Source: a virus
Lineage: Duplodnaviria; Heunggongvirae; Uroviricota; Caudoviricetes
Strand: one strand, 5' to 3'
Length of the DNA stretch: 54,394 bases
Virus record (IMG/VR): IMGVR_UViG_2541047847_000004
Positions 29,906 to 52,590 of the stretch are shown here, piece after piece; position 1 is the first letter of the stretch, and each line of letters starts with the position of its first letter. The notes beneath the pieces are model-generated. The model had not been told where the DNA came from, ran no database searches, and saw only the letters and a program-made list of their open reading frames with translations. The position numbers and the translations under genes were made by a program.

Positions 29906-30555
29906 GCCGCCATCTCCCTGACCAGCTTTTCCGCCTGCAGGCGAACCTGCGCCAGAAACGCCTCACCACATGCCTCAAGTTCATCGCGCCCGATGTAGCT
30001 GATTGCCGGTCCCTTCCAGGTCTTGTCGAAAACAGCAATAGCACCAGCGAAGAAAGCGCCTGTCGGCACCTGCTTCTCATCCTTCGGGATAAACCAGGCA
30101 GGCAGTTCAAAACCAATACGCCCGCGAATAAAAGCAATATGATCTGCATCTTCCGGCCACCACACTTCGCTGGTGGCAGCTTTGATCAGGAAAACATAGC
30201 GCCCGCCCTTATCACGCATGGCACTGGCATGCTTCATGATGTAACGCATGCCGGTGATGTATTGCCCCTCATGCTGACTGGCGCGGCTGTATGGGGGATT
30301 TCCAAAGGCAGCACCTTTAAGCTCCGCAAGGCGTTCTGACCAGTCATGCGCCAGCGCGTTGTCTTCCGCCGTGTAATACGCAGCACATTTGGCGTTATCA
30401 CCGTCAGTGAACAGATCCAGAACAAACGGACCAAACAGGGTGTTAATTCCCCAGAAAATGTTGTCCGGCGTGCGCCACTGATCGCCCACTTCCTTCAGTT
30501 CATGGGCTGGTTTGTTCCGCAGTTCCACCAGCTCCTGGCAATATTTATTACTCAT
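29902..30555 (-). CDS. Phage orphan DNA N6-adenine methyltransferase (Dam-like)
   Basis: GNPPYS (DPPY-type) catalytic motif; start set to ATG at 30555 overlapping the upstream stop (TAATG). Confidence 0.7.
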   Translation of the reverse strand: MSNKYCQELVELRNKPAHELKEVGDQWRTPDNIFWGINTLFGPFVLDLFTDGDNAKCAAYYTAEDNALAHDWSERLAELKGAAFGNPPYSRASQHEGQYITGMRYIMKHASAMRDKGGRYVFLIKAATSEVWWPEDADHIAFIRGRIGFELPAWFIPKDEKQVPTGAFFAGAIAVFDKTWKGPAISYIGRDELEACGEAFLAQVRLQAEKLVREMAA

Positions 30556-31049
30556 TAAGCCCCCACGTAATTCCCTGACAGATACCACTCTTCACCTGAT
30601 GCAGCCCGCTTACTGCTTTTCCGTAAACACCGTTCACGACGCGCCAGAAAATTGTTTCGTTCTGGCTGGGAGTAGCTTTCACGGAATGCCGCCATCCACA
30701 CCGTTGCAGCACGACGGTATAAGCCCCTGGACTCCAGTTCTTCCGCCTGGCGGGTCAGGCACAAAATCACCCGGGGATCGTTAGTGCCGACATAGAAATT
30801 GCGCACAGGTCTGGTTTCACGAACTGGTTGTGGTTCCGGCTCCTGCGCTCTCTCAGTCAGGCGTGGGAAATGTCTGCGTGTATCTCCTTCACAACGGTGA
30901 GCCACACGCCCACTCTGACGTAACTTGCTTGCTGACTGCAGAACGCGCTGCCGTGAGTAACCTGCAAAAGCATCCGCAATGTCTCCGGAAGTACAGCCCG
31001 GATGGGCTTCAATGAATTTCTGAACGTCATTCAAAAGACTCATGATCAC
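30555..31049 (-). CDS. PerC-family (Pch-like) transcriptional regulator
   Basis: C-terminal ...AEELESRGLYRRAATVWMAAF resembles the PerC signature (LE..GLWRRAA..W); assignment from memory. Confidence 0.45.
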   Translation of the reverse strand: MIMSLLNDVQKFIEAHPGCTSGDIADAFAGYSRQRVLQSASKLRQSGRVAHRCEGDTRRHFPRLTERAQEPEPQPVRETRPVRNFYVGTNDPRVILCLTRQAEELESRGLYRRAATVWMAAFRESYSQPERNNFLARRERCLRKSSKRAASGEEWYLSGNYVGA

Positions 31050-31987
31050 CCCCTGAATCCTGCCGGGATCTGGCTGTAGTCCACGTTGTCGTAACTGGCT
31101 TTGAAGTACGGGTCTTCGCGTTTTTCGGTGTACGTGCTGACGGACGGCGATAAGCGCAGGGAAAGCTCATCCCATTTTTCCCGCAACTTCGACGGGCTGA
31201 GCACGTTACGGCACCAGAACGGATCGCGGCTGACGCGGCTGTACATCTCGCAGATTTGTTTGTGAGTACGACCATCCTGCACACACATCAGGCGAATTTC
31301 GTTTGCCCATGCTGTCCAGTTAGGTTCTTTGGGACGAACCACCTCGCCGTCACATTCGGCGGCCTGCTCGTACAGGGCGATGATTTTTTTCCAGAGCCAC
31401 TGTGCGCAGGTCAAATCATCCTGCGTCCCCCACTGGCGCTTTTTAGGGCTGAATACAACCGCATCAGGATGGCGAGTTAAAAAATCCTGTTCATCCGTCT
31501 GCGTGTCCGGTTGCGAAGCGTCCGGACGAGAAGGTTTTTTATCTGACGGATCATGTTTTGATTTTACTGACGGATCCCCGCCAGATTCTGACGGGTGAAA
31601 ACCCGCTTTTTTGCCAGATTTCGACGCATCAAATTTTGACGGGTCAGATTTTGATGCGTCAGATTTTGACGGGTCAGAATCTGACAGTTGAGAAAATGCC
31701 GCTGCCTGAAGCTTCGCAACGTTAAGCTGATAAACATTCGACGCATTGCGGTTACCCTGGCGACGCGCCTTACGCGTTAACCAGCCTTCTGCTTCCAGCC
31801 GTGCGATAGCCGTTCTGACGGTACTCATCCCCGCGCCAATCTGACGGGCAATAGTTTCAATTGATGGCCAGCACACACCTTCGTCATTACTGAAATCAGC
31901 CAGGCGGGCCATAATTGCCACGCTGGATAATTTCATGCCTGACGCAGCGCAACCATCCCATACATAGCCGGTTAATTTAGTGCTCAT
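31046..31987 (-). CDS. Replication initiator (lambda O-like) with internal iterons
   Basis: 313 aa, HTH-like N-terminus, internal Asp/Ser/Lys repeat region encoded by 15-bp iterons. Confidence 0.65.
   Translation of the reverse strand: MSTKLTGYVWDGCAASGMKLSSVAIMARLADFSNDEGVCWPSIETIARQIGAGMSTVRTAIARLEAEGWLTRKARRQGNRNASNVYQLNVAKLQAAAFSQLSDSDPSKSDASKSDPSKFDASKSGKKAGFHPSESGGDPSVKSKHDPSDKKPSRPDASQPDTQTDEQDFLTRHPDAVVFSPKKRQWGTQDDLTCAQWLWKKIIALYEQAAECDGEVVRPKEPNWTAWANEIRLMCVQDGRTHKQICEMYSRVSRDPFWCRNVLSPSKLREKWDELSLRLSPSVSTYTEKREDPYFKASYDNVDYSQIPAGFRG
31540..31690. repeat. Origin-like iteron array inside the O-like gene
   Basis: About eight copies of a ~15-bp unit (consensus agattttgacgggtc), five of them contiguous at 31616-31690. 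Confidence 0.6.
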
Positions 31988-31996
31988 GACCGACCT

Positions 31997-32335
31997 CTAT
32001 TTCCCTGAATTTACGACGAAACTGTTCGAGCGGGCTAAAGCACTCATGCTCATAGCCTTCACGGAGGTAGATAACCCGTTGTGTTTCCGGCTCCCAACGA
32101 ATGACTCTGACGGGCACTCCGTAGTGATCTTTGAACCAGCGGTTAACTTGTCGCAAAGGACTGTCTCCTTCTGCCGGTTGAAATCCCCCACAGCCCACTC
32201 AGCAAAGCTGTGGGTTACAATTTCCCTGTCACCTGGTACATTTACTGCATAGCAATACTCCACCTTCGCTTTTCCACCCGGTACAGGAAGCGCAATCAGT
32301 TGCGAGCGACGGTAGTGTGTTGTTAAACTGTTCAT
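31997..32335 (-). CDS. Hypothetical protein (YmfM-like by size and position)
   Basis: 112 aa; start overlaps upstream stop (coupled). Competes with an overlapping 73-aa ORF in another frame. Confidence 0.35.
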
Positions 32336-37516: not shown

Positions 37517-37762
37517 ATGTTGCTCCCGTGTGCAGACGGGATAATGGAGAAACGTATGCTGAACCTCGATTGTGTTCCTATCTCAACTTATTGCAAAGAA
37601 ACTGGCGAAACTCCTGAAGCAATAAACAAACGTGTACAGCGCGGTGTTTGGCGTGAAGGTGTTCAGGTTTTAAAGGTTGAAGGCGTTAAGGAGAGGTGGA
37701 TTGATCTTAGTGAGGTTGCAAAATGGGCCAGACAAAACTGCTCAAACTACCGCGCGGCGTAA
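37517..37762 (+). CDS. xis: Excisionase-like protein
   Basis: Small basic ORF directly upstream of and overlapping int; alternative start at 37556 (GGAG + 6 nt). Confidence 0.5.
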   Translation: MLLPCADGIMEKRMLNLDCVPISTYCKETGETPEAINKRVQRGVWREGVQVLKVEGVKERWIDLSEVAKWARQNCSNYRAA

Positions 37763-38895
37763 CAATCAGGAAACACCGCCAGGGAGAAACGATCAATATA
37801 ACTTTCACCTACAAAGGAGTTAGATGTCGTGAGCCGCTTTCCAATCTGGAAGTAACACCAAAGAACATTAAATACGCCGAGCGTACACTCGGCGAAATCC
37901 ATAATAAGATCGAAAGGGGAACATTCATTTATGCAGAATATTTTCCCCGTTCTGCTCGTTTGAAAATTTTTGGTAATGCTGCTGCAGGCAAAACGGTAAA
38001 GGTGTACCTGGACGAATATCTTGAAATCTGCGAAACAAGAAAACTTTCACCCTCTACGATTGGTGGCTATAAAAAATGCCGTAGTGCGTTAGCCTCACTT
38101 CACATTTGCCCTGCAAGTGAATTAACACCAGCAACCCTGAAAGCGTGGATTCAAAGCCAGAAAACAACCTTAAAAACCATTCGCAACCAGTTATCTTTCC
38201 TACGGTCAGCACTTGATGAAGCCGTGACCGATGGGGTACTTCAAATTAACCCCGTATCGTTAGTAACAGCTTCGCGCTACCAAAGTGATAAGTCAGAAGC
38301 AGAAAGCAGCTATGTGGTTGATCCGCTATCACCAGCAGAAGTTGATGCATTACTAGCAGCAGCCGGAAACAAACAATGGGAAAATCTGTTCCGGTTCGCC
38401 ATACATACAGGCCTGCGTAGTTCTGAATTATGTGCCCTACGATGGCATGATATCGACTTTGTTGGAAAAACAGCCCATGTTCAGAGCGCAAGTGTTGTCG
38501 GAGTTATCAAAGGAACAAAGACAAAAGCCGGTACCCGTAAAGTTGAACTGACTGAAGAAGCAATGTTGGCGTTGATAAACCAGAAGCCATTTACATTCAT
38601 GAAGGATGCTACTGTCTTTGAAGATCCAAAGACCAATAAACCCTGGGCAAGTGCTGATGCAATTAGGAAAAAAGCATGGGTGCCAACATTGCGAAAAGCA
38701 GGTATTCGTTACAGAAACCCATATCAAACCAGGCATACATTCGCCACCAGCCATATCAGCCGGGGAGCAAACCTGTTTTGGCTTGCGGCTCAAATGGGCC
38801 ATAAAGGGCCTGAAATGTTATTCAGGCACTATGGACAATACTTGAAAGAGTATGATGGGAGGGCAAGTATCAAGGATAAAAAGGCTTTATTTTAA
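37723..38895 (+). CDS. int: Tyrosine integrase (prophage)
   Basis: 390 aa; C-terminal R...H..R...Y catalytic pattern (HTFATSHISRGANLF...LGHKGPEMLFRHYGQY). Confidence 0.85.
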   Translation: MGQTKLLKLPRGVTIRKHRQGETINITFTYKGVRCREPLSNLEVTPKNIKYAERTLGEIHNKIERGTFIYAEYFPRSARLKIFGNAAAGKTVKVYLDEYLEICETRKLSPSTIGGYKKCRSALASLHICPASELTPATLKAWIQSQKTTLKTIRNQLSFLRSALDEAVTDGVLQINPVSLVTASRYQSDKSEAESSYVVDPLSPAEVDALLAAAGNKQWENLFRFAIHTGLRSSELCALRWHDIDFVGKTAHVQSASVVGVIKGTKTKAGTRKVELTEEAMLALINQKPFTFMKDATVFEDPKTNKPWASADAIRKKAWVPTLRKAGIRYRNPYQTRHTFATSHISRGANLFWLAAQMGHKGPEMLFRHYGQYLKEYDGRASIKDKKALF

Positions 38896-41125: not shown

Positions 41126-42319
41126 GTGGCACGTACAACACGCCCTCTTACTAACACTGAACTATCACGTGCTAAAGCAACTGAAAAGGATCTAACGCTA
41201 CATGATGGTGATGGGCTTTTTCTACTCATAAAAACGAACGGAAGGAAGTTGTGGCGTTTCCGATACCAGAAGCCTGTATCAAAACAGAGAACCATGATTA
41301 GTTTAGGAACGTTCCCCGCCCTATCTCTGGCTGAGGCCAGAAACGTGCGTGCTGAGTATCTTTCCTTATTAGCCCGGGGTATTGATCCACAAACATACAG
41401 TAAGCAAGTCTCAGAACATCAACAGATTGCGATTGATAGTATTTTTTCAAAAGTTGCCACAAATTGGTTTGCCATAAAAAGCAATAACGTCACACCTGAT
41501 TATGCAAAGGATATATGGCGATCCTTAGAGAGGGACATTTTCCCTGCTATCGGTGAGATTCCTGTTCAGGAAATAAAAGCCCGCACATTAATTGAAGCCC
41601 TAGAGCCAATTAAAGCTCGTGGGGCACTTGAGACTGTTCGTCGTTTAGTACAACGTATTAATGAAATTATGATTTATGCTGTTAATACTGGTCTGATAGA
41701 TGCTAACCCTGCTTCAGGCATTGGTATGGCATTTGAAAAACCTAAAAAACAGCACATGCCAACGCTTAGACCTGAAGAATTACCGAAACTCATGCGTTCA
41801 ATAACAATGTCTAATTTATCTATTCCAACTCGTTGTTTGATTGAATGGCAACTCTTAACACTTGTACGCCCTGCAGAAGCTTCCAATGCAAAGTGGATAG
41901 AGATCGATTTCGAAGCTAAACTATGGATAATACCAGCCAATAGAATGAAGGCAAAGCGGGAACATATTGTTCCATTATCACTTCAGACATTAGATATTCT
42001 TGAAATTATGAAGCCAATCAGTTCACATCGAGAATATATTTTTCCTAGCAGGAATAACCCCAATCAACCAATGAACAGTCAGACGGCAAATGCAGCCTTA
42101 AAGCGCATCGGTTATGGTGGTAAGTTGGTTGCACACGGACTGCGTTCGATAGCAAGTACAGCAATGAATGAAGCTGGTATAAATCCAGATATTATCGAAG
42201 CAGCACTTTCCCATTGTGATAAAAATGAGGTTAGAAGAGCATATAATCGAACAACCTACTTGGAACAAAGAAAAGAGCTTATGAATTGGTGGGGTAGTTT
42301 CATTTCAAAAAACAAATAA
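41126..42319 (+). CDS. int: P4-type tyrosine integrase
   Basis: 397 aa from GTG; N-terminus MARTTRPLT...LHDGDGLFLLIKTNGRKLWRFRY typical of P4-family integrases next to ssrA. Confidence 0.9.
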   Translation: MARTTRPLTNTELSRAKATEKDLTLHDGDGLFLLIKTNGRKLWRFRYQKPVSKQRTMISLGTFPALSLAEARNVRAEYLSLLARGIDPQTYSKQVSEHQQIAIDSIFSKVATNWFAIKSNNVTPDYAKDIWRSLERDIFPAIGEIPVQEIKARTLIEALEPIKARGALETVRRLVQRINEIMIYAVNTGLIDANPASGIGMAFEKPKKQHMPTLRPEELPKLMRSITMSNLSIPTRCLIEWQLLTLVRPAEASNAKWIEIDFEAKLWIIPANRMKAKREHIVPLSLQTLDILEIMKPISSHREYIFPSRNNPNQPMNSQTANAALKRIGYGGKLVAHGLRSIASTAMNEAGINPDIIEAALSHCDKNEVRRAYNRTTYLEQRKELMNWWGSFISKNK

Positions 42320-42329
42320 GGATATAGTG

Positions 42330-43445
42330 ATGAATAATAAAGATTTTCCATGCAAAGCCTCAAATATCTATGATAAAAATATAAATTTTTTATTTGGCTC
42401 AGGCTCCTCTGCTTCATATATTCCTACTCTCTATCTAGATAAAAACACTACTTATGAAACATTACTTACACATGAGGATTGTGAGGGTGTCAAGGACTTC
42501 ATATTATGTTCTTATTTCAATAATATCATTAGAAAAACATTTTGTGTTAAACCTAATAGTGAAGACAAAAAATATAATTCTACTTTAGCAAACTATAGCT
42601 ACTTTATTGATGAACTAATCAAATTATTAGAGAAAAAAGGGGCAAATCAAATAAGGCGAGCGAATATTTTTACAACAAATTATGATCTTTTTTTCGAAAC
42701 TGCGGCTGATGATATTTTAAATAATAAAACATTTCATTTCAATGACGGTGGTCTAGGTTTCAAAAGCCGGAAATTGAACATTAGTAATTTTCATATTACT
42801 GCTTGGCATCAAGGTACGCATGATATGTACAAACATGAAATTCCAACAGTAAACTTAATAAAAATGCATGGTTCTGTTTCTTGGTGTAGAGATATTAATG
42901 AAACGATTAGTATTAATTACACTCAAGAAGAACCACCAAAGTTTAGACTAGATACAAAAAAAGACATTAATGATTTAGTCACCACCTTAAACGAAACAAG
43001 CGATAATCTCGTTAGTTATTTAAATTTATCTACAAGCGATCAAGAAACACTTCAAGAATTTAAATCTTATTACAACAACTTAGCTATAGTTAGCCCAACT
43101 AAAGAAAAATTTTCTGAAACTGTTTTTCAACAACATTATTACCAATGTTTACGATTGCTAAGTTATGAATTAGAGAAACCACAAACTGTATTAATTTGTT
43201 TTGGTTTTTCTTTTCAAGATGAACACATACGTGAGATTATAAAAAGATCATTAAGTAACCCTACTCTTAAGGTCTTTGTTTTTTGCTACTCAAAATCCAG
43301 CATGGAAAGTATACAGCACATTATCAATGACCAACGAATAACCTATATTCTTCCTATAGAAGATGATCATACAATTTCATTTAAACCGTTTATAGATAGA
43401 GTATTTAGATCTGAACACGGAGATTGGATTACATGGAAGAACTAA
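42330..43445 (+). CDS. SIR2-family NADase-like protein (defence pair with HerA)
   Basis: FLFGSGSS (Rossmann GxGxS), TTNYD and KMHGSVSW motifs characteristic of SIR2 domains; AT-rich; start at ATG 42330. Confidence 0.7.
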   Translation: MNNKDFPCKASNIYDKNINFLFGSGSSASYIPTLYLDKNTTYETLLTHEDCEGVKDFILCSYFNNIIRKTFCVKPNSEDKKYNSTLANYSYFIDELIKLLEKKGANQIRRANIFTTNYDLFFETAADDILNNKTFHFNDGGLGFKSRKLNISNFHITAWHQGTHDMYKHEIPTVNLIKMHGSVSWCRDINETISINYTQEEPPKFRLDTKKDINDLVTTLNETSDNLVSYLNLSTSDQETLQEFKSYYNNLAIVSPTKEKFSETVFQQHYYQCLRLLSYELEKPQTVLICFGFSFQDEHIREIIKRSLSNPTLKVFVFCYSKSSMESIQHIINDQRITYILPIEDDHTISFKPFIDRVFRSEHGDWITWKN

Positions 43446-45205
43446 TTGTTGGTAATGTTACCCAAATAAAGGGCACAACAGTAAGGGCCAAAATCAATCA
43501 TGACTTTTTTCAGTCAACATACTTTCATAAAGGTAAAATACTACGAGGTATCTCTATAAATGAATTTGTTTTGATTAAAAAAGGTTATCACGATATCGTC
43601 GGAAAGATTATTGGTGAAGAAATTGTTGAAAACATCAATATTAGAAGCGATGAAATTGAACAAAAAAAATATGACCGTTTTGTAGAACTGAATATTTTAG
43701 GGTATTTTTTTGAGAGTTCATTTTATTCCGGTATAAAATTTTTACCAATGATAAATGACAGCTTACACTTAATTTCAGACGAGAAGATATCAGAAATATA
43801 TAAGTTTAGCAAAAACACTAAAGCACCTTTAATAAACATAGGGAAATCTATGTTAGAGGAGTTGCCAATTAACATACCAATAAATGGTATTTTTAATTCA
43901 CACATAGGCATATTTGGAAACACTGGAAGTGGCAAGTCCAACACTCTTGCAAAACTTTATCACTCTCTAATAAACCTTATAACAACAAAAGAAAGAGTTA
44001 TATCAAAATCAAGTTTTGTTTTGATTGATTTTAATGGTGAATACAGCACATTTGCTACGTCATTTCCAGATTTGTGCGAACAAGTCAATCTCAACACAAA
44101 GAATTCCGGTGATAAACTAACTTTCACTGATGATGAATTTTGGGATGATGAATTATTATCGGTATTGTTTTCTGCAACTGAAAAAACTCAAAAGCCATTT
44201 CTTAGTCATTTAATTAAAAATAGAGAAAAATATAATGGTAAATTGGAGGATTACTTACAAACAACTATCCACAGTATGTTTTCTCCTAATCCACACAGGG
44301 AAACAATAAATTTATTAAAAAGCCTTGCCCCTTACTTTTCAGAGAGAGCACAGGGTAAAATACTTGAAGAGTTATCACAATTCTCATGGCATTCTGGGCA
44401 AAATAAGTATTTGCACTCAAAATACAACTTCATTGATAAAATGGAAGATGCTTTACAGGCTTTAGATGCAACATATAAATCCAAGTTTAAGTTAAACAGC
44501 GTTTTTGATGAAGTTGCAATCCGATCTATTCTACAACTAATTAATTCAGTATCACGTAATTATGTACAATATGATCATATATATCCGCTAATTAATAAAA
44601 TAACGGCAATGACTCCTGCCCTATCCAAAGTAATTAATATCAGAAACGAAACAAAAAATAAAAAACCTATATATATAGTGTCATTAAAAGAGTGCAATCA
44701 ATTAATCAAAAAAACCATTCCAATGATGCTTGCAAAATGTTCATTCTTAGAGCACAAGTCATCTAAAAATACAAAGGAAAGCTTCCACCTAATTATAGAT
44801 GAAGCACACAACATATTGTCTGAAACATCTGTCAGAGAGGCGGAAACATGGAAAGATTATAGGCTTGAGTTATTTGAGGAAATAATAAAAGAGGGAAGGA
44901 AGTTTGGGTTCTTCGTTACAATTTCGAGTCAACGACCTTTTGACATCTCTCCCACAATTGTTTCCCAACTTCATAATTATTTTATTCATCGATTAGTGAA
45001 CGAAAATGATTTGTTTTTGTTAAAAAATACTTTAAGCACCCTTGATGCGGCATCAAGATCACTAATTCCAACACTTCCTCCTGGTGGGTGTATAGTTTCA
45101 GGAACAGCTTTCCACACCCCATTACTTGTTCAAATCGACAGATTAGCTGAGGAAAATGCTCCTAACAGCGATACTCTTGATTTAGAAAAATTGTGGGATA
45201 TTTAA
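43433..45205 (+). CDS. herA: HerA-like ATPase
   Basis: Walker A GNTGSGKSN and Walker B HLIIDEAHN; overlaps SIR2 stop; start at ATG 43433 (track TTG 43424). Confidence 0.75.
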   Translation: MEELIVGNVTQIKGTTVRAKINHDFFQSTYFHKGKILRGISINEFVLIKKGYHDIVGKIIGEEIVENINIRSDEIEQKKYDRFVELNILGYFFESSFYSGIKFLPMINDSLHLISDEKISEIYKFSKNTKAPLINIGKSMLEELPINIPINGIFNSHIGIFGNTGSGKSNTLAKLYHSLINLITTKERVISKSSFVLIDFNGEYSTFATSFPDLCEQVNLNTKNSGDKLTFTDDEFWDDELLSVLFSATEKTQKPFLSHLIKNREKYNGKLEDYLQTTIHSMFSPNPHRETINLLKSLAPYFSERAQGKILEELSQFSWHSGQNKYLHSKYNFIDKMEDALQALDATYKSKFKLNSVFDEVAIRSILQLINSVSRNYVQYDHIYPLINKITAMTPALSKVINIRNETKNKKPIYIVSLKECNQLIKKTIPMMLAKCSFLEHKSSKNTKESFHLIIDEAHNILSETSVREAETWKDYRLELFEEIIKEGRKFGFFVTISSQRPFDISPTIVSQLHNYFIHRLVNENDLFLLKNTLSTLDAASRSLIPTLPPGGCIVSGTAFHTPLLVQIDRLAEENAPNSDTLDLEKLWDI

Positions 45206-45225
45206 TATCGCTACGCGCAGTGCTT

Positions 45226-45262
45226 TCCCCGCCTCGCCCGCACGCTTTGCGGGGCGGTTTTA
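45226..45262 (+). terminator. Intrinsic terminator after herA
   Basis: ccccgc...gcgggg stem followed by cggtttta; two further GC-rich hairpins at 45286-45309 and 45340-45374. Confidence 0.5.
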
Positions 45263-45402
45263 ATGCAGTTGCACTGACACGCTCAGACCGCGCCGGGAAT
45301 GGCGCGGTCTGCAGAAAATGAGGCAGGGAAACGCATGCAAAGCCATGCACCTTATCGATGCATGGCTTTTTTCAGTAAAAACAGGCGGATTTTCGGGAAA
45401 TT

Positions 45403-45975
45403 TTACACAGACTGACGTGATGCCAGTTGCGCACTTTTACGCGAAAAAATCATGTTCTGCGCAGGGGTAAATTTTTCACGGCTGTCGTCCACCGAAGCCG
45501 CGTCAGGCCTGAATCCGATGGTCGTTAAAATGTCGCTATCCTGTGCGGAATAATTAATTTTTTCCCCCTTCGCAAGCCAGGACAGAAGGGCTTCACGCAG
45601 GGCATCTGTGGCACGCTGTATGGCACAGTTTCGGGCAATGGCCGTCAGCTCACTGTAGCCCATCAGCTCCGGTGCCAGTGCCGCCGCCAGTGCTGTGCCG
45701 TGCTGCTGCATAAAATCATTCAGCCGGTCGCGGATGCTGATGTGCTGAACGGCTTCATGCGAACGAATATAACGACCAGCGGCCTGATTCACCTGCCATT
45801 TTCTGACTTCGATAATATTGCGTAATTCGTCCAGGCGACTGACGTTTCTGCCTTCTCCTGACAGAAGCCGCAGATATTCCTGTTCGGCCGCTGCCAGCTC
45901 ATTTTTGCGTTGCAGCCATGCTGCTTTGTTATTCTGACAGGTGTCAAAGGCCTGCTGTAAGGCTGTGCTTTCCAT
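45403..45975 (-). CDS. psu: Polarity suppression protein Psu
   Basis: 190 aa, same length and position as P4 Psu in the sid-delta-psu block. Confidence 0.75.
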   Translation of the reverse strand: MESTALQQAFDTCQNNKAAWLQRKNELAAAEQEYLRLLSGEGRNVSRLDELRNIIEVRKWQVNQAAGRYIRSHEAVQHISIRDRLNDFMQQHGTALAAALAPELMGYSELTAIARNCAIQRATDALREALLSWLAKGEKINYSAQDSDILTTIGFRPDAASVDDSREKFTPAQNMIFSRKSAQLASRQSV

Positions 45976-46048
45976 CGTTATCTCTTTCTCATCATGCTGA
46001 AGAATAAAAATACGGTGTGCGGCGACGGCCGGTGTTAACCGGCAGCCC

Positions 46049-46549
46049 TCATTCCAGACGCAGCGAATATGATTGTGTTTTTAAGCGTACTGGCGGCAGT
46101 TCCTGTTTTTCATGCAGGCTTTCTGCCAGTTCGTCCGGCGTGACCGGGCGGACAATGAAACGGTTGATGGTCTGAAGCGTTTTAAACACCAGACCACAGC
46201 CCGGATCCGTGCACACATAAAAACGCTCGGTGACTTCCTGAGACAGACGCCGCGATGTTCTTGACAGTGCAAGGCCTTTACATCTCCGACAACAATATCC
46301 GGTAACAAGCATTCTTTTCGGGCGTTTCATACTGCCGGAGGCTGACGTCAGTGAATCGCGGTATCTCTGTTTGCCTGAAATGTATTCCATTCCTGAATCT
46401 TTACTGTCAGAGAAAAAGCTTTCACTCGCTTCAAATGTCGCAGAGCAATAAATATTCCGGCACTGTGCAATCATTATCTTGGTGCCATCGTCCATGAAAT
46501 GTGCGCGGCGGGTGTGAGCAACATGACCACACGACGGGCAGTAAATCAT
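46049..46549 (-). CDS. delta: Delta (Ogr/Delta zinc-finger late transcription activator)
   Basis: 166 aa with two CxxC...CxxC units (CPSCGH...C...C and CCRRCKG...CTDPGC). Confidence 0.75.
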   Translation of the reverse strand: MIYCPSCGHVAHTRRAHFMDDGTKIMIAQCRNIYCSATFEASESFFSDSKDSGMEYISGKQRYRDSLTSASGSMKRPKRMLVTGYCCRRCKGLALSRTSRRLSQEVTERFYVCTDPGCGLVFKTLQTINRFIVRPVTPDELAESLHEKQELPPVRLKTQSYSLRLE

Positions 46550-47280
46550 GACAGCAGTCCTCTGGCCTTAAGCACTGCTCCCTGCTGGTCTATTTTGTCC
46601 TGCCACACCTTGCGCTGTGCCGGTGTGCCTGCCACCTCATAATCCATGTGAGGAAGTGTTGCCGCTGACAGTCCGGTCAGCCGGAGAACCGGCTCGCCGG
46701 TGAGGCTGATTTGCATCTGTTTAATTTTCTGTTCCAGCGATGATTTCACCTGCTGCATGACAGCCTTTTCCGGTGCGACGTAGCCCTGATGGCCGGTGGT
46801 GTTGGCGAGCGGATTTTCCTGTACCAGAATGCTCAGATGCATTGCCCGGACAAGCGCCTCACAGGTTTCATTCAGGGCGTGTTCCAGCTCATGCTCTGCA
46901 TACAGACTCAGAAGGTGATGATGTGCCTTCCGGTAGGCGGTGGCCGTGCTGTCACACGCCCCTTTCAGGCGTTCGCGTTCAAAATTCAGCACCACGGCCA
47001 GATTGTCATATTCCTGTACCAGTTCCCGGCGTGCCACGCGCTCAATGTGGCGCTGTTTCAGCTCGTCGCTCAGGACACCACCGGCTGCACGAAAGGCCGT
47101 GCGCCAGTCGTCAGCGTCGTTTCCGTCGGCCTGCGCCAGCGCATTTTTTTCCTGCTCTGCCCGTTCAATGGCCGTGACGGTCTCATCCATCAGGCGGGCG
47201 TTCTCAAGATGGGCGGCTCTGGCCTTTTCCAGTTGTGCCAGTGCGGGTTGCAGATATTCAGGGATGGTGTTGTCAGACAT
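46546..47280 (-). CDS. sid: Capsid size determination protein Sid
   Basis: 244 aa from ATG 47280; upstream of delta with overlapping stop/start. Confidence 0.7.
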   Translation of the reverse strand: MSDNTIPEYLQPALAQLEKARAAHLENARLMDETVTAIERAEQEKNALAQADGNDADDWRTAFRAAGGVLSDELKQRHIERVARRELVQEYDNLAVVLNFERERLKGACDSTATAYRKAHHHLLSLYAEHELEHALNETCEALVRAMHLSILVQENPLANTTGHQGYVAPEKAVMQQVKSSLEQKIKQMQISLTGEPVLRLTGLSAATLPHMDYEVAGTPAQRKVWQDKIDQQGAVLKARGLLS

Positions 47281-47449
47281 TTTCCGGCTCCTCGTCACTT
47301 CAGGTTAAGAAAATTGTGACGTACACCGGACAACAACACGACGCATTGCAGATGTGCCAGCCCTGACACAGGAGACTCATCCTCAGACCGGCAAGCCAGG
47401 AAAAGGTCGCAGGAAAAACCGGCTTACTGTTTGTTTTTTTATATTTTAC

Positions 47450-47553
47450 TGTTCACCTCTGTTCACCATAAGAAAAAAGACAAGTAATACAGTAAGTTAA
47501 ATGGTGAACAATCGCAGTAATGACTGTTCACCGTCTGTTCACCACTGTTCACC
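47450..47553. repeat. TGTTCACC iteron cluster (P4 crr/ori-type alpha-binding sites)
   Basis: Six TGTTCACC octamers (five direct, one inverted) within ~100 bp. Confidence 0.6.
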
Positions 47554-47880
47554 CGTTGATGGGCTTTTTGTGCTGTTTATTACTGTTTGTTTTTATTAAT
47601 TCGCCGGGAATGAATAAGAAAAAACGATTTGTATTTCACTATAAAAATTACGAATTGCTTTAAGTGGCTTTAAATGACTTTAAGTGGAGATGAACAAAAA
47701 ACACACAAGCATTATAAGACTGCCGGAACAAATCCCCCCTGTTGCGTCTGCTGAAAATATTCACAAAATAAAGCGCTACCCGAAGCCGGACGGACTTATC
47801 CGGTGCTGTATGGACATTAACGAGGTAGCCCGATGCAAGCTGTTTTTTCTTCCCCGTCTCCCGCCCCTGTGACGCCACTG

Positions 47881-48099
47881 ATGCCGCTGCCGGACATCAC
47901 GCAGGAGCGTTTTTTACGTCTGCCGGAAGTGATGCACCTGTGCGGCCTGTCACGCTCGACCATCTATGAACTCATCCGTAAGGGGGAATTTCCGCCGCAG
48001 GTGAGTCTTGGCGGTAAAAATGTGGCCTGGCTGCACTCTGAAGTCACTGCATGGATGGCCGGGCGCATTGCCGGACGCAAACGGGGGTACGACGCATGA
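47881..48099 (+). CDS. AlpA-family transcriptional regulator (Vis-like)
   Basis: [31 protein letters not shown] typical of AlpA; start set to ATG 47881. Confidence 0.6.
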
Positions 48100-48497
48100 T
48101 GATGCCCGCTCTGCAAAAACGCCCTTTTTCTGGCTTGCCTTTTTCCGGCATTTGCGGATATAGTTTTTCCGCTGCCGCAAAATCGGCAGCCGGGCGTGGA
48201 AACCCGAGCAATTCACAGGCGACATATGACGCGCCATGCGTCTTTTTTTGTGTCGCAATCAACGCCACAGAGCGCCAGATTATGGTGTGGTGTGTGGTCA
48301 GTCGTGCAGATGGCATTCCGTGCATCCTGCCCGCGTCCGCTCATTATGCCGCAGAGTCAATGGTAGCTCAGGCGGGGCAGCCTCCGGGCTGGCCGGTATC
48401 CTGTGAAGCCGGTATTTCCACCCCCGTCTGGGCTATCGCCATCGAGCGTGGAAACTCCGGCGATAGCGTTATTTGCTATTCACAGGAGGCTGCCATC

Positions 48498-48695
48498 ATG
48501 GCTACAACCCTTACCCCCTCACACCCTGAATTTGTCTTTGTGTTTGCGGCTGTCCGTCGCGCAGACCGTCATCCCCGTATCTGTATGCTTCGCACCGTCG
48601 CCGGTGATGAACGCAGTGCCCGCCGTTCCCTTGTCCGTGACTATGTGCTCTCCCTTGCTGCCCGTCTGCCGGTGGTGGAGGTGTCCCGTGCGTAA
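48498..48695 (+). CDS. Icd-like small protein
   Basis: 65 aa from ATG 48498 (AGGAGG upstream); in-frame with a longer track ORF that I consider an artefact. Confidence 0.4.
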
Positions 48696-48975
48696 TAAAA
48701 AAGCCCCTCAGACCGTCTCAGCGCGTCATGACGCCCGTGAACACCTCAGCATTGAGGCTTACCATAAGCTCAACCGCGCCAGCGCCGTATCCCGGTTTGT
48801 TGGGGGTGATTTGATTCACCGTGAACTCTCCGGCCTGCATCAGCTCTACATTCCGCATATTTTCAGCTACCTGAATGAAGATATTGATTTTGTGCTGAAT
48901 GAGCTGAAAGCCAAAGGCCTGTGCCGCGATTTTCTCGCCCAGCAGAAAGACCGGGGAGACAGGACGCATGTTTGA
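48688..48975 (+). CDS. Hypothetical 95-aa protein (epsilon-like by position)
   Basis: GTG start with GGAGG 7 nt upstream, overlaps preceding stop; position equivalent to P4 epsilon. Confidence 0.35.
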
Positions 48976-49423
48976 TTTTCCCCAGCCCGGTGAGATTTAC
49001 CGTTCTGCCGGTTTTCCCGATGTGGCCGTGGTCGGCATTCTGGAAGACGGTATTCCGTGGGAAATGCCGTACCGCTGCCCGGACATTGTCTGGAACCCGT
49101 ACCGCCGTAAATTCAGTATCCTTGTGCGTATCCTCGCTGACGGGCGCACCACAGACATCCCGCTGGGGCGTTTTCTGCGGGAATTTACCTGTGACCGTCC
49201 TGACCTGTTTAAACGCAGCCCCGTAAACCGGCATGCGGTACTGAAAGAAATGGCCGGAGACCCGGAATTACAGAAATGGCGGGAGAAATATCTGGATATT
49301 TACCCGCAGGACACTGTTCCGGCCAGCCGGGCGGCACCGGTGGCGCGGGAATGGCGGGAAATTCCCCGCACGGAGCCTGACCCGGAAATCACCCCGGATA
49401 ACAGTTACCGCAATTATCTGTAA
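48968..49423 (+). CDS. Hypothetical 151-aa protein (P4 orf151-like by size and position)
   Basis: Translationally coupled to upstream gene; upstream of alpha. Confidence 0.45.
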   Translation: MFDFPQPGEIYRSAGFPDVAVVGILEDGIPWEMPYRCPDIVWNPYRRKFSILVRILADGRTTDIPLGRFLREFTCDRPDLFKRSPVNRHAVLKEMAGDPELQKWREKYLDIYPQDTVPASRAAPVAREWREIPRTEPDPEITPDNSYRNYL

Positions 49424-49558
49424 TTAAAAAACGACACCCGAAAAATTAAATGTGCGTATTCGCGCAGGGATACGCACGTCTTCAGGAGACGCAGATATGC
49501 CTTATCAGTTAATGCAACCGGCACGGAATGCAGTCATCTGTCACAGGGAGGAAAGCAA

Positions 49559-49879
49559 ATGAAAACACCCTTACCGCCCGTCTTACGCGCTGCCCTTTAC
49601 CGTCGCGCTGTCGCCTGTGCCTGGCTGACCGTGTGCGAACGTCAGCACCGCTACCCGCATCTCACCCTTGAGTCACTGGAGGCGGCCATCGCCGCTGAGC
49701 TGGAAGGCTTTTATCTGCGCCAGCACGGTGAGGAAAAAGGGCGTCAGATAGCCTGTGCCCTGCTGGAAGATTTAATGGAATCCGGCCCCCTGAAGGCCGC
49801 GCCGTCGCTGTCCTTTCTCGGGCTGGTTGTGATGGATGAACTCTGTGCCCGTCACATAAAAGCGCCGGTACTGCACTGA
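49559..49879 (+). CDS. Hypothetical 106-aa protein
   Basis: ORF with AGGGAGGA RBS immediately upstream of alpha. Confidence 0.4.
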
Positions 49880-49893
49880 AGGAGAACAACACC

Positions 49894-52227
49894 ATGAAAA
49901 TGAACGTAACCGCCACCGTCAGCCATGCGCTCGGCCACTGGCCGCGTATTCTCCCGGCGCTGGGGATTCAGGTGCTGAAGAACCGTCATCAGCCCTGTCC
50001 GGTCTGTGGCGGGAGTGACCGCTTCCGTTTTGATGACAGGGAGGGGCGTGGCACCTGGTACTGCAATCAGTGTGGTGCCGGTGACGGCCTGAAACTGGTT
50101 GAAAAGGTGTTTGGTGTTTCCCCGTCCGACGCGGCCGCAAAGGTGGCTGCCGTGACCGGCAGCCTGCCACCGGCTGACCCGGCAGTGACGGCCGCCGCCG
50201 TTGCTGAAACAGAAGCCGCCCGGAAGAACGCCGCCGCACTGGCACAAACCCTGATGGCGAAAACCCGTCCCGGAACCGGTAACGCCTACCTGACCCGCAA
50301 GGGCTTTCCCGGCCGGGAATGCCGGATGCTGACCGGCACACACAGAGCCGGTGGCGTGAGCTGGCGCGCCGGTGACCTTGTGGTGCCACTGTATGACGAC
50401 AGCGGCGAACTGGTTAACCTTCAGTTAATCAGTGCTGACGGCCGTAAGCGCACCCTGAAAGGCGGACAGGTCAGGGGCACCTGTCACATCCTTGAAGGAC
50501 AGAATCAGACCGGAAAACGTCTGTGGATAGCGGAGGGATACGCGACCGCACTTACCGTGCATCACCTGACCGGTGAAACGGTGATGGTGGCGCTTTCTTC
50601 CGTGAACCTCCTTTCTCTGGCCAGCCTTGCCCGGCAGAAGCATCCGGCCTGTCAGATTGTCCTTGCCGCAGACCGTGACCTCAGCGGTGACGGCCAGAAA
50701 AAAGCCGCCGCAGCCGCAGATGCGTGTGAAGGTGTTGTTGCCCTGCCGCCGGTCTTCGGTGACTGGAATGATGCCTTCACGCAGTACGGCGGGGAAGCCA
50801 CCCGTAAGGCCATTTACGATGCCATCCGGCCACCGGCTGAAAGCCCGTTCGACACCATGAGCGAAGCGGAGTTTTCCGCCATGAGTACCAGCGAAAAGGC
50901 CATGCGTATCTATGAGCATTACGGCGAGGCGCTCGCGGTCGATGCCAACGGCCAGCTTCTGTCCCGCTATGAAAATGGTGTCTGGAAGGTGCTGCCGCCA
51001 CAGGACTTTGCCCGGGATGTGGCCGGGCTGTTTCAGCGGCTGCGCGCGCCGTTCTCCTCCGGGAAGGTGGCCTCCGTGGTGGACACCCTGAAGCTGATTA
51101 TTCCGCAGCAGGAAGCCCCCTCCCGCCGCCTGATTGGCTTTCGTAACGGCGTGCTCGACACGCAGAACGGCACGTTCCACCCGCACAGTCCGTCACACTG
51201 GATGCGCACCCTGTGCGATGTGGATTTCACCCCACCGGTGGAAGGGGAAACGCTGGAAACCCACGCCCCCGCGTTCTGGCGCTGGCTTGACCGTGCCGCC
51301 GGTGGCCGTGCGGAAAAACGCGACGTGATTCTGGCCGCACTGTTTATGGTGCTGGCAAACCGCTACGACTGGCAGCTCTTTCTGGAGGTGACCGGTCCCG
51401 GCGGCAGCGGCAAAAGTATCATGGCCGAAATAGCCACCCTGCTGGCCGGGGAGGATAACGCCACGTCGGCCACCATTGAGACGCTGGAATCCCCGCGTGA
51501 ACGTGCCGCGTTAACTGGCTTCTCACTGATACGCCTGCCGGACCAGGAAAAATGGAGCGGCGACGGTGCCGGACTCAAGGCCATCACCGGCGGCGATGCG
51601 GTGTCCGTGGACCCGAAATACCGGGATGCGTACTCCACGCATATCCCGGCGGTGATTCTGGCCGTGAACAATAACCCGATGCGCTTCACCGACCGCAGCG
51701 GCGGCGTGTCACGCCGGCGGGTGATTATTCACTTCCCGGAACAGATAGCCCCGCAGGAGCGCGACCCGCAGCTTAAGGACAAAATCACCCGCGAGCTGGC
51801 GGTCATCGTGCGTCACCTGATGCAGAAATTCAGCGACCCGATGCTCGCCCGGTCACTGCTTCAGTCCCAGCAGAACTCAGACGAGGCGCTGAACATCAAA
51901 CGGGATGCCGACCCGACGTTTGATTTTATCGGCTATCTGGAAACCCTGCCGCAGACCAGCGGCATGTATATGGGGAACGCCAGTATCATCCCGCGCAATT
52001 ACCGTAAATACCTCTATCACGCCTATCTGGCCTACATGGAGGCAAACGGCTACCGGAATGTACTCAGTCTGAAAATGTTCGGGCTGGGGCTGCCGGTGAT
52101 GCTGAAGGAATACGGACTGAATTACGAGAAGCGCCATACCAAACAGGGGATACAGACCAACCTGACGCTGAAAGAGGAAAGCTACGGCGACTGGCTGCCA
52201 AAATGTGACGACCCTGCGACAGCCTGA
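49894..52227 (+). CDS. alpha: Alpha primase-helicase (P4 alpha-like)
   Basis: 777 aa: N-terminal Zn-binding CPVCGG...CNQCG, TOPRIM-like region, P-loop VTGPGGSGKS. Confidence 0.9.
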   Translation: MKMNVTATVSHALGHWPRILPALGIQVLKNRHQPCPVCGGSDRFRFDDREGRGTWYCNQCGAGDGLKLVEKVFGVSPSDAAAKVAAVTGSLPPADPAVTAAAVAETEAARKNAAALAQTLMAKTRPGTGNAYLTRKGFPGRECRMLTGTHRAGGVSWRAGDLVVPLYDDSGELVNLQLISADGRKRTLKGGQVRGTCHILEGQNQTGKRLWIAEGYATALTVHHLTGETVMVALSSVNLLSLASLARQKHPACQIVLAADRDLSGDGQKKAAAAADACEGVVALPPVFGDWNDAFTQYGGEATRKAIYDAIRPPAESPFDTMSEAEFSAMSTSEKAMRIYEHYGEALAVDANGQLLSRYENGVWKVLPPQDFARDVAGLFQRLRAPFSSGKVASVVDTLKLIIPQQEAPSRRLIGFRNGVLDTQNGTFHPHSPSHWMRTLCDVDFTPPVEGETLETHAPAFWRWLDRAAGGRAEKRDVILAALFMVLANRYDWQLFLEVTGPGGSGKSIMAEIATLLAGEDNATSATIETLESPRERAALTGFSLIRLPDQEKWSGDGAGLKAITGGDAVSVDPKYRDAYSTHIPAVILAVNNNPMRFTDRSGGVSRRRVIIHFPEQIAPQERDPQLKDKITRELAVIVRHLMQKFSDPMLARSLLQSQQNSDEALNIKRDADPTFDFIGYLETLPQTSGMYMGNASIIPRNYRKYLYHAYLAYMEANGYRNVLSLKMFGLGLPVMLKEYGLNYEKRHTKQGIQTNLTLKEESYGDWLPKCDDPATA

Positions 52228-52234
52228 CCCACCT

Positions 52235-52259
52235 GACCGGCATCTGCCGGTCTTTTTTT
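52235..52259 (+). terminator. Intrinsic terminator after alpha
   Basis: gaccggc-atct-gccggtc followed by seven T. Confidence 0.6.
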
Positions 52260-52269
52260 ATCCCTGAAT

Positions 52270-52590
52270 TCCCCGAAGGTGAACAATCCACTGTTCACCC
52301 TTCACCGTATATTCACCTGTTATCACACTGAAATTAAAAGAGAAAAACGAAAGGTGAACAGTGTGAACAATCAAATCAAAAAAAACTTTTTTTCTCCCTG
52401 TGTGATTTCAGTACGGGGGATTAATCACCGGTATGAGTCACACCGGCAGAATGCCGGAGGTGAAGAATCGAATGTTCACCCTTCACCCATTATTCACCAC
52501 CTATCATACTGAAATAAAAGGAGAAAAAAGAAAGGTGAACAGTGTGAACAGTTCTTTCGAAAAAAAATTTTTTTTCTGTACGATATAGCA
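52270..52590. repeat. Origin-like region: two ~95-bp direct repeats each containing TGTTCACC/GGTGAACA iterons and flanked by A/T runs
   Basis: Units at 52278-52372 and 52459-52553 are near-identical. Confidence 0.55.

Follow-up and report, generated by a model that had tools for sequence, protein, structure and literature searches.

A probable replication origin inside the initiator gene of an SfII-like temperate phage

Positions 31505-31685 of the DNA analysed here (the window: 54,394 nucleotides, IMG/VR record IMGVR_UViG_2541047847_000004) are probably the origin from which an SfII-like temperate phage starts its vegetative replication; they lie inside the part of the phage's own initiator gene that codes for a linker. 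The conserved element is about 180 bp long and exceeds the tandem repeat array from which it was recognized. In the mechanism that we propose, dimers of the winged-helix N-domain would bind six dyad-symmetric iterons of 13 bp, whose centre-to-centre spacing of 15 bp would turn each dimer to roughly the opposite side of the helix from its neighbour; the resulting nucleoprotein complex would destabilise the adjoining AT-rich stretch, which carries two GATC sites, and the lambda-O-like C-domain would then bring in the replicative helicase. That the initiator binds here, that the helix unwinds, that the origin fires and how helicase is loaded are all inferences.

The initiator gene and the anatomy of the element

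The initiator gene (31046-31987, minus strand) encodes a 313-aa protein; Shigella phage SfII has the same protein (100% identity), annotated as “O protein family protein,” and at the nucleotide level the gene is ~99% identical to its counterparts in SfIV and several E. coli phages. A sequence-only reading of the window had labelled the gene O-like, and the label is borne out by a full-length match to PHROG 391 (“replication initiation O-like,” E 1e-135) and by similarity to the C-terminal part of lambda O (39.3% identity over initiator aa 166-277, E 1e-17; local alignment of lambda O with the initiator, E 4e-23); the C-terminal domains of the two proteins are homologous. The only Pfam match of the N-domain is HTH_36 (PF13730); it does not match Phage_rep_O (PF04492), the family to which lambda O itself belongs with an E-value of 5.7e-36. 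The winged-helix N-domain spans aa 1-101, and the AlphaFold2 model has a disordered linker at aa 102-162 (pLDDT <50) and a helical, lambda-O-like C-domain at aa 166-280 (pLDDT 85-95). The element is located in the DNA coding for this predicted disordered linker, between N-domain and C-domain.

Gene order in the window is that of SfII. On the upstream side are cI on the plus strand and then, on the minus strand, cro, a CII-like gene, a gene for a 112-aa protein and the initiator gene; downstream follow a 164-aa gene combining winged-helix and PerC regions, a Dam methylase, a protein with a LexA DNA-binding domain and RusA, and after these a KilA-N protein, a DUF968 protein and Q. The prophage integrase is encoded at 37723-38895. 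The 112-aa protein directly upstream of the initiator (31997-32335, minus strand) is YmfM-like (PHROG 1170, no Pfam match); its gene is found at the matching place in SfII, mEp460, KpF5 and Flotzy, and at this position the annotation of E. coli GPEC1035 shows a small DUF4222 gene instead.

Tandem Repeats Finder scored 31615-31678 as 4.3 copies of a 15-bp period (81% matches, score 86) and, alternatively, as 2.1 copies of a 30-bp period (88%, score 100). Read in the sense of the gene, on the minus strand, the unit is TCA-AAA-TCT-GAC-NNN, coding for S-K-S-D-x. Five tandem iterons with a 15-bp period occupy 31613-31685, each a 13-bp near-palindrome of the form GTCARAWTCTGAC (31673-85, 31658-70, 31643-55, 31628-40 and 31613-25, all minus strand). 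They code for SDPSK and SDASK pentapeptides, and the peptide encoded by the array, SDPSK SDASK SDPSK FDASK S, is the repetitive Asp/Ser/Lys segment that had been described from the sequence. Next comes a spacer (31593-31612, minus strand) made up of an A6 tract and a T4 tract, GGCAAAAAAGCGGGTTTTCAC in gene sense, in which the encoded residues differ among relatives except for a Phe that is always coded by TTT. The sixth iteron (31578-31594, minus strand; core 31580-31592) extends to a 17-bp palindrome, CCGTCAGAATCTGGCGG; its codons are nearly invariant across 77 genes, and its perfect form, CCTCCAGAWTCTGGAGG, is found in distant relatives. On the plus strand at 31592-31605, between iterons 5 and 6, there is also a weak terminator-like hairpin, CGGGTGAAAACCCG, followed by T6 and antisense to the initiator gene; the hairpin is not kept in relatives, whereas the A-tract and the TTT codon are.

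The six full copies lie at nt 303-408 of the gene (aa 101-136), between the DNA-binding domain and the C-domain. Two partial copies, or half-sites, of the form CTGACGGATC stand at 31543-31552 and 31567-31576 in the adjacent AT-rich stretch, so that the original count of about eight repeats of ~15 bp was a fair one, made up of five plus one full copies and two half copies. The element closes with a GC-richer conserved segment (31505-31533, minus strand), at which the exchangeable module has its right-hand edge; the segment comprises 14-bp direct repeats at 31505-31518 and 31520-31533 and contains the palindrome GTCCGGAC. The 13-mers are palindromic at 3-6 of their 6 arm positions, copy 1 perfectly so. 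The outer positions of the core co-vary as T..A or C..G (odds ratio 13.6 without correction for relatedness), and this symmetric co-variation fits what is expected for a palindrome bound by a dimer.

Adjoining the array downstream is the AT-rich and least stable segment, a putative unwinding element (31529-31579, minus strand). Its 40-mer at 31529-31568 is the least stable of the gene, with a nearest-neighbour dG of -47.0 against a gene mean of -57.0 (sd 3.2), which is ~3 sd above the mean; its AT content of 70% is modest, and segments of lower stability occur elsewhere in the prophage. Each of the two half-sites contains a GATC (31549-31552 and 31573-31576), the repeats being 24 bp apart. Among 77 relatives the corresponding block has two GATC sites in 62, three in 7 and one in 8, the whole-gene average being 0.33 per 66 nt, and its GTA, TCA, GAT and AAA codons are 93-100% fixed.

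Conservation at the DNA level

The constraint on these ~180 bp acts on a cis-acting DNA element and not on the peptide, as follows from the fixation of codons, the placement of the motif, its independence of reading frame, the lack of a conserved ORF and the lack of RNA or promoter signals. The gene set comprised 9 phages and 80 genomes from many genera of Enterobacterales, with N-domains 52-100% identical; the codon and frame tests covered 77-82 relatives, which are phylogenetically linked, so that the raw counts given here overstate the number of independent observations. An array of the matching kind is present in all full-length relatives. A lack of conservation in related prophages had been named as grounds for refutation; the repeats are in fact kept across Enterobacterales, at the DNA level and beyond what the peptide would need.

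This is seen most directly in codon choice. From 82 genes we took 372 pentapeptide units, chosen by protein pattern only, and compared their codons with those used elsewhere in the same genes: the first Ser is TCA in 86% of units (16% elsewhere), the second Ser is TCT in 74% (control 8%), Lys is AAA in 99.6% (control 62%) and Asp is GAC in 80% (control 46%), whereas the middle codon of the unit is free. The motif is also tied to its place in the gene, with 383 sense matches between +270 and +560 in 73 genes and 20 in the remaining 288 kb of these loci, a density 259-fold higher at the linker position than elsewhere, and 2-10 copies per gene.

Repeats within a coding sequence could instead reflect a slippage-prone, low-complexity Asp/Ser/Lys/Pro linker, in which likeness at the DNA level would stem from recent duplication or concerted evolution and have no role in cis. 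The predicted disorder of the linker suits such a reading, as does the in-frame variation in copy number: the number of units is polymorphic (3-7), with 3-6 in E. coli alleles, whose initiators have 308, 313, 318 or 323 aa, and 4-7 in Klebsiella phages. A first IMG/VR scan, which returned only N-domains 100% identical to the query, informs this polymorphism alone. What speaks against a peptide-only reading is the single-copy block that follows the array, F-(D/H)-P-(S/P)-E-S-G-G-D-P-S-V-x-S-K-x-D-P-S-D-K-K, since slippage cannot homogenise a sequence present once. Top-codon frequency in this block averages 0.93 across 77 genes, compared with 0.54 for conserved columns of the N-domain, and its GTA, TCA, GAT, TTT and GAA codons stand at 100%. 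Among 17 full-length homologues, synonymous identity is 0.71-0.94 over aa 103-169 (0.77-0.91 over aa 147-169) against ~0.35-0.5 in the N-domain; in the C-domain it is mostly ~0.4-0.6, with a local rise to 0.65-0.69 near aa 240-254. Synonymous sites of the single-copy block are thus near-invariant across genera, where those of the N-domain are saturated. Furthermore, radical residue changes occur inside units (S to F, I or Y; K to E) with the DNA core retained, and in phiP27 and one further locus (L163) one copy is kept in a shifted frame, CCGTCAGAATCTGAC being read as T-R-Q-N-L-T. We therefore regard slippage as a very improbable account of the repeats.

Synonymous constraint might also come from an overlapping gene, or from the structure of an mRNA or antisense RNA, in place of a DNA site. 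The window does hold alternative-frame ORFs at 31558-31725 (+) and 31564-31746 (-), hairpins could form from the palindromes, and Rfam gives a weak match to a microRNA model. An overlapping gene was rejected on the stops in the alternative frames of relatives: across the element in 77 relatives, three of the five alternative frames contain stops in 77/77, a fourth in 73/77, and the fifth is open in 37/77, so that no overlapping ORF is conserved. A known RNA family was likewise rejected, the sole match in the Rfam scan being a eukaryotic microRNA model at 30.7 bits, far below its gathering score of 97. A scan of the element gave no promoter-like site, and all copies share one sequence, where RNA folding would ask for mere complementarity. 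An overlapping gene or RNA structure is accordingly a most unlikely source of the constraint.

Exchange of modules and the loading of helicase

Natural mosaics indicate which part of the locus the repeats belong to. The phages phiNP, Flotzy and YeP1 share 31505-31986, that is, the N-domain, the iterons and the AT-rich block, but carry a C-domain of the Phg_2220_C type, and phiP27 (L17) has a third type of C-domain followed by DnaC and helicase genes; the same repeats are thus paired with three different C-domains. The converse exchange is seen in mEp460 (L003, 2826-3007), which is 94-97% identical on both flanks and has 31543-31981 replaced: the piece that has been swapped consists of the N-domain, the repeats and most of the AT-rich segment. 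Its cassette brings a different N-domain, with no Pfam match, together with its own six 23-bp repeats (CATCGGGTCAAARTG-like) and three 12-bp AT-rich repeats. These mosaics show that the repeats are co-inherited with the N-domain; neither the C-domain nor the PerC-like gene nor the immunity region is tied to them in this way.

A decayed copy of the module was observed in two E. coli loci (L147 and L171), in which initiator residues 1-79 (99% identical) are fused to an unrelated frame of 455 aa and the repeats are lost; the fusion resembles the ymfN fusion of prophage e14.

The junctions of the mosaics fall at 31505/31509 in phiNP and Flotzy and at 31542/31543 in mEp460, inside or at the edge of the conserved segment. 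This could suggest that the block is a recombination “linker,” kept similar because it serves as an exchange junction of lambdoid modules. Such a role would leave unexplained the dyad-symmetric repeats, the AT-rich block with its fixed GATC sites and the strict link to a single N-domain clade, and as the sole reason for conservation we think it highly unlikely; it is compatible with an origin, since the shared edge of an origin could double as a crossover point.

Co-inheritance with the N-domain supports binding by that domain, and not firing. The repeats could therefore be binding sites without being the origin, acting in autoregulation, as a roadblock to transcription or in handcuffing for copy-number control or incompatibility, with the origin elsewhere; the iterons of plasmids, too, have control functions. 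Against this, the least stable part of the gene, a conserved AT-rich block with paired GATC sites, directly flanks the array, and the position of the array equals that of lambda ori. With one mismatch allowed, the core TCARAWTCTGR occurs at 6 positions within 104 bp here and at 6 in the remaining 54 kb, and the scan found no second cluster of it in the whole window. We consider sites without origin function unlikely, if somewhat less so than the other alternatives, and an origin at 31505-31685 the better reading.

How this origin would obtain its helicase is a separate question. The sequence-only reading had remarked that no P-like gene follows the initiator and had proposed a search for loader homologues elsewhere in the prophage; the remark is correct, the next gene being PerC-like, and the search turned up no homologue of P, DnaC or DnaB in the window. 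When lambda P and the DnaC and helicase of phiP27 were compared with the whole window by tblastn, no match was better than E 0.01, and for lambda P none fell below E 0.3. By Pfam and PHROGs, the ORFs of the left operon comprise only DUF2303, an HD-domain nucleotidase, the integrase and families of unknown function, with no loader among them, and the other early genes, several of which have no assigned function, show no loader-like domains.

The gene in the position of lambda P (30555-31049, minus strand) encodes the 164-aa winged-helix and PerC protein (Pfam PerC, E 1.7e-8; PHROG 1324, “transcriptional activator”), and its start overlaps the stop codon of the initiator gene (ATGA). On its sequence, the PerC-like protein is not a P homologue. 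Nor is it a general replication partner, since its gene is missing from the Klebsiella phages KpF5 and Kp1LV, which have the same type of initiator and in which a methylase gene comes directly after it. Across 71 related loci, a P homologue is found downstream in 2 and DnaC in 6, one of these also with a helicase.

Given a window that encodes no phage homologue of P, DnaC or DnaB, the helicase is most likely host DnaB with DnaC, recruited directly or via an unrecognised partner. In lambda, the C-domain of O docks P. A more specific proposal, which we offer tentatively and rate as rather less probable than not, is a lambda-type origin served by a single phage protein, in which the C-domain would recruit host DnaB-DnaC or another host factor directly and the GATC pair would couple firing to Dam methylation or SeqA. 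If true, such coupling would account for the Dam-family methylase gene that often follows the initiator: here it lies two genes downstream, and it is common in relatives, although SfIV has no methylase gene (PMC3851460).

A P4-like satellite adjoins the prophage at 41126-52541. It encodes an integrase (41126-42319), a pair consisting of a SIR2-like protein and a HerA-type ATPase (42327-45205), which looks like defence cargo, Psu, an Ogr/Delta protein and a 777-aa primase-helicase (49894-52227). The last of these was considered as the helicase of the prophage and rejected, being part of the satellite. The window contains 14 copies of the octamer TGTTCACC, where 1.9 would be expected, and clusters of it flank the primase-helicase gene, with six copies at 47450-47553 and five at 52278-52541. 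These clusters resemble the repeats to which P4 alpha binds at ori and crr; by that analogy they would be a second iteron origin in the window, unrelated to the first.

Distribution and comparison with known origins

Of 5426 complete E. coli genomes, 2058 carry a near-identical segment of 220 nt, and related elements are found across Enterobacterales. Several circular records of 37-44 kb entered as “plasmids” carry the segment (H121 and H122; E. coli NZ_CP081794.1); these may be phage genomes, either excised or replicating, that were assembled as episomes. The SfII record has no annotation of the element, the SfIV genome paper makes no mention of it (PMC3851460), and in the searchable literature we found no description of iterons or an origin in SfII, SfIV or SfV, of “initiator-solo” modules, or of the motif. 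The arrangement itself is very probably a known one, a lambdoid origin embedded in its initiator gene, in an instance that is common and has gone unannotated. What is distinctive here is the tandem period of 15 bp, the polymorphism in copy number, the fixed GATC pair and the usual absence of a loader.

Annotating the element would improve the annotation of prophages and provide a defined origin for serotype-converting phages of the SfII, SfIV and SfV types and for temperate phages of Klebsiella. For phage engineering it advises caution, in that synonymous recoding of this linker should be avoided. The locus also serves as a worked example of a cis-acting DNA element written into a disordered linker, with the peptide repeat as a by-product, and the family, most members of which have no recognisable loader, makes a tractable system for how a lambda-O-type C-domain acts without P.

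The comparison with lambda, which the sequence-only reading had proposed, holds in its main features: iterons lie between the N- and C-domains, with an AT-rich stretch downstream. As a control, the same repeat tool recovered the four lambda iterons at nt 349-435 of the gene, an equivalent position. In both phages the iterons are dyad-symmetric and in the middle of the initiator gene, and the gene belongs to the rightward early operon, where it follows cro and a cII-like gene. They differ in that lambda has four iterons of 19 bp, 20-24 bp apart, whereas here the sites are of 13 bp and nearly abutting, at a period of 15 bp, and are present in six copies, a number that varies among relatives; lambda combines a Phage_rep_O N-domain with a P gene, and the present phage has an HTH_36 N-domain and no P gene.

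Each of lambda, P22 and phage L has its own repeats inside the initiator gene, and the six imprecise repeats of an 11-bp sequence in gene 18 of phage L have been proposed as its origin (PMC8022706). The gene 18 products of P22 and phage L are, like the initiator described here, distant ori-binding proteins, each with its own repeats in the gene; their repeat sequences and N-domains are unrelated to those of the present phage, and a DnaB-type helicase (gene 12) stands beside their initiator, whereas here neither helicase nor loader follows. Much closer is mEp460: its C-domain, its PerC-like and Dam genes and the genes upstream match those of the window at 94-97% nucleotide identity, and at the corresponding place in the gene it, too, has repeats with an AT-rich segment after them. 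Its N-domain and the repeats themselves are different.

GATC sites in an AT-rich region are also a feature of the 13-mers of E. coli oriC and of the origin of plasmid P1, which the GATC pair in the AT-rich block (62 of 77 relatives) recalls; unlike those origins, the element has no DnaA box (TTWTNCACA) within 6 kb. That absence, together with the 15-bp period, also sets it apart from iteron plasmids of the RepA or pi type, with their repeats of 17-22 bp at about two helical turns and their DnaA boxes. The features it does display are those of the lambdoid embedded origins: repeats inside the gene, dyad symmetry, an AT-rich segment downstream, linkage to the N-domain and conservation at the level of DNA.
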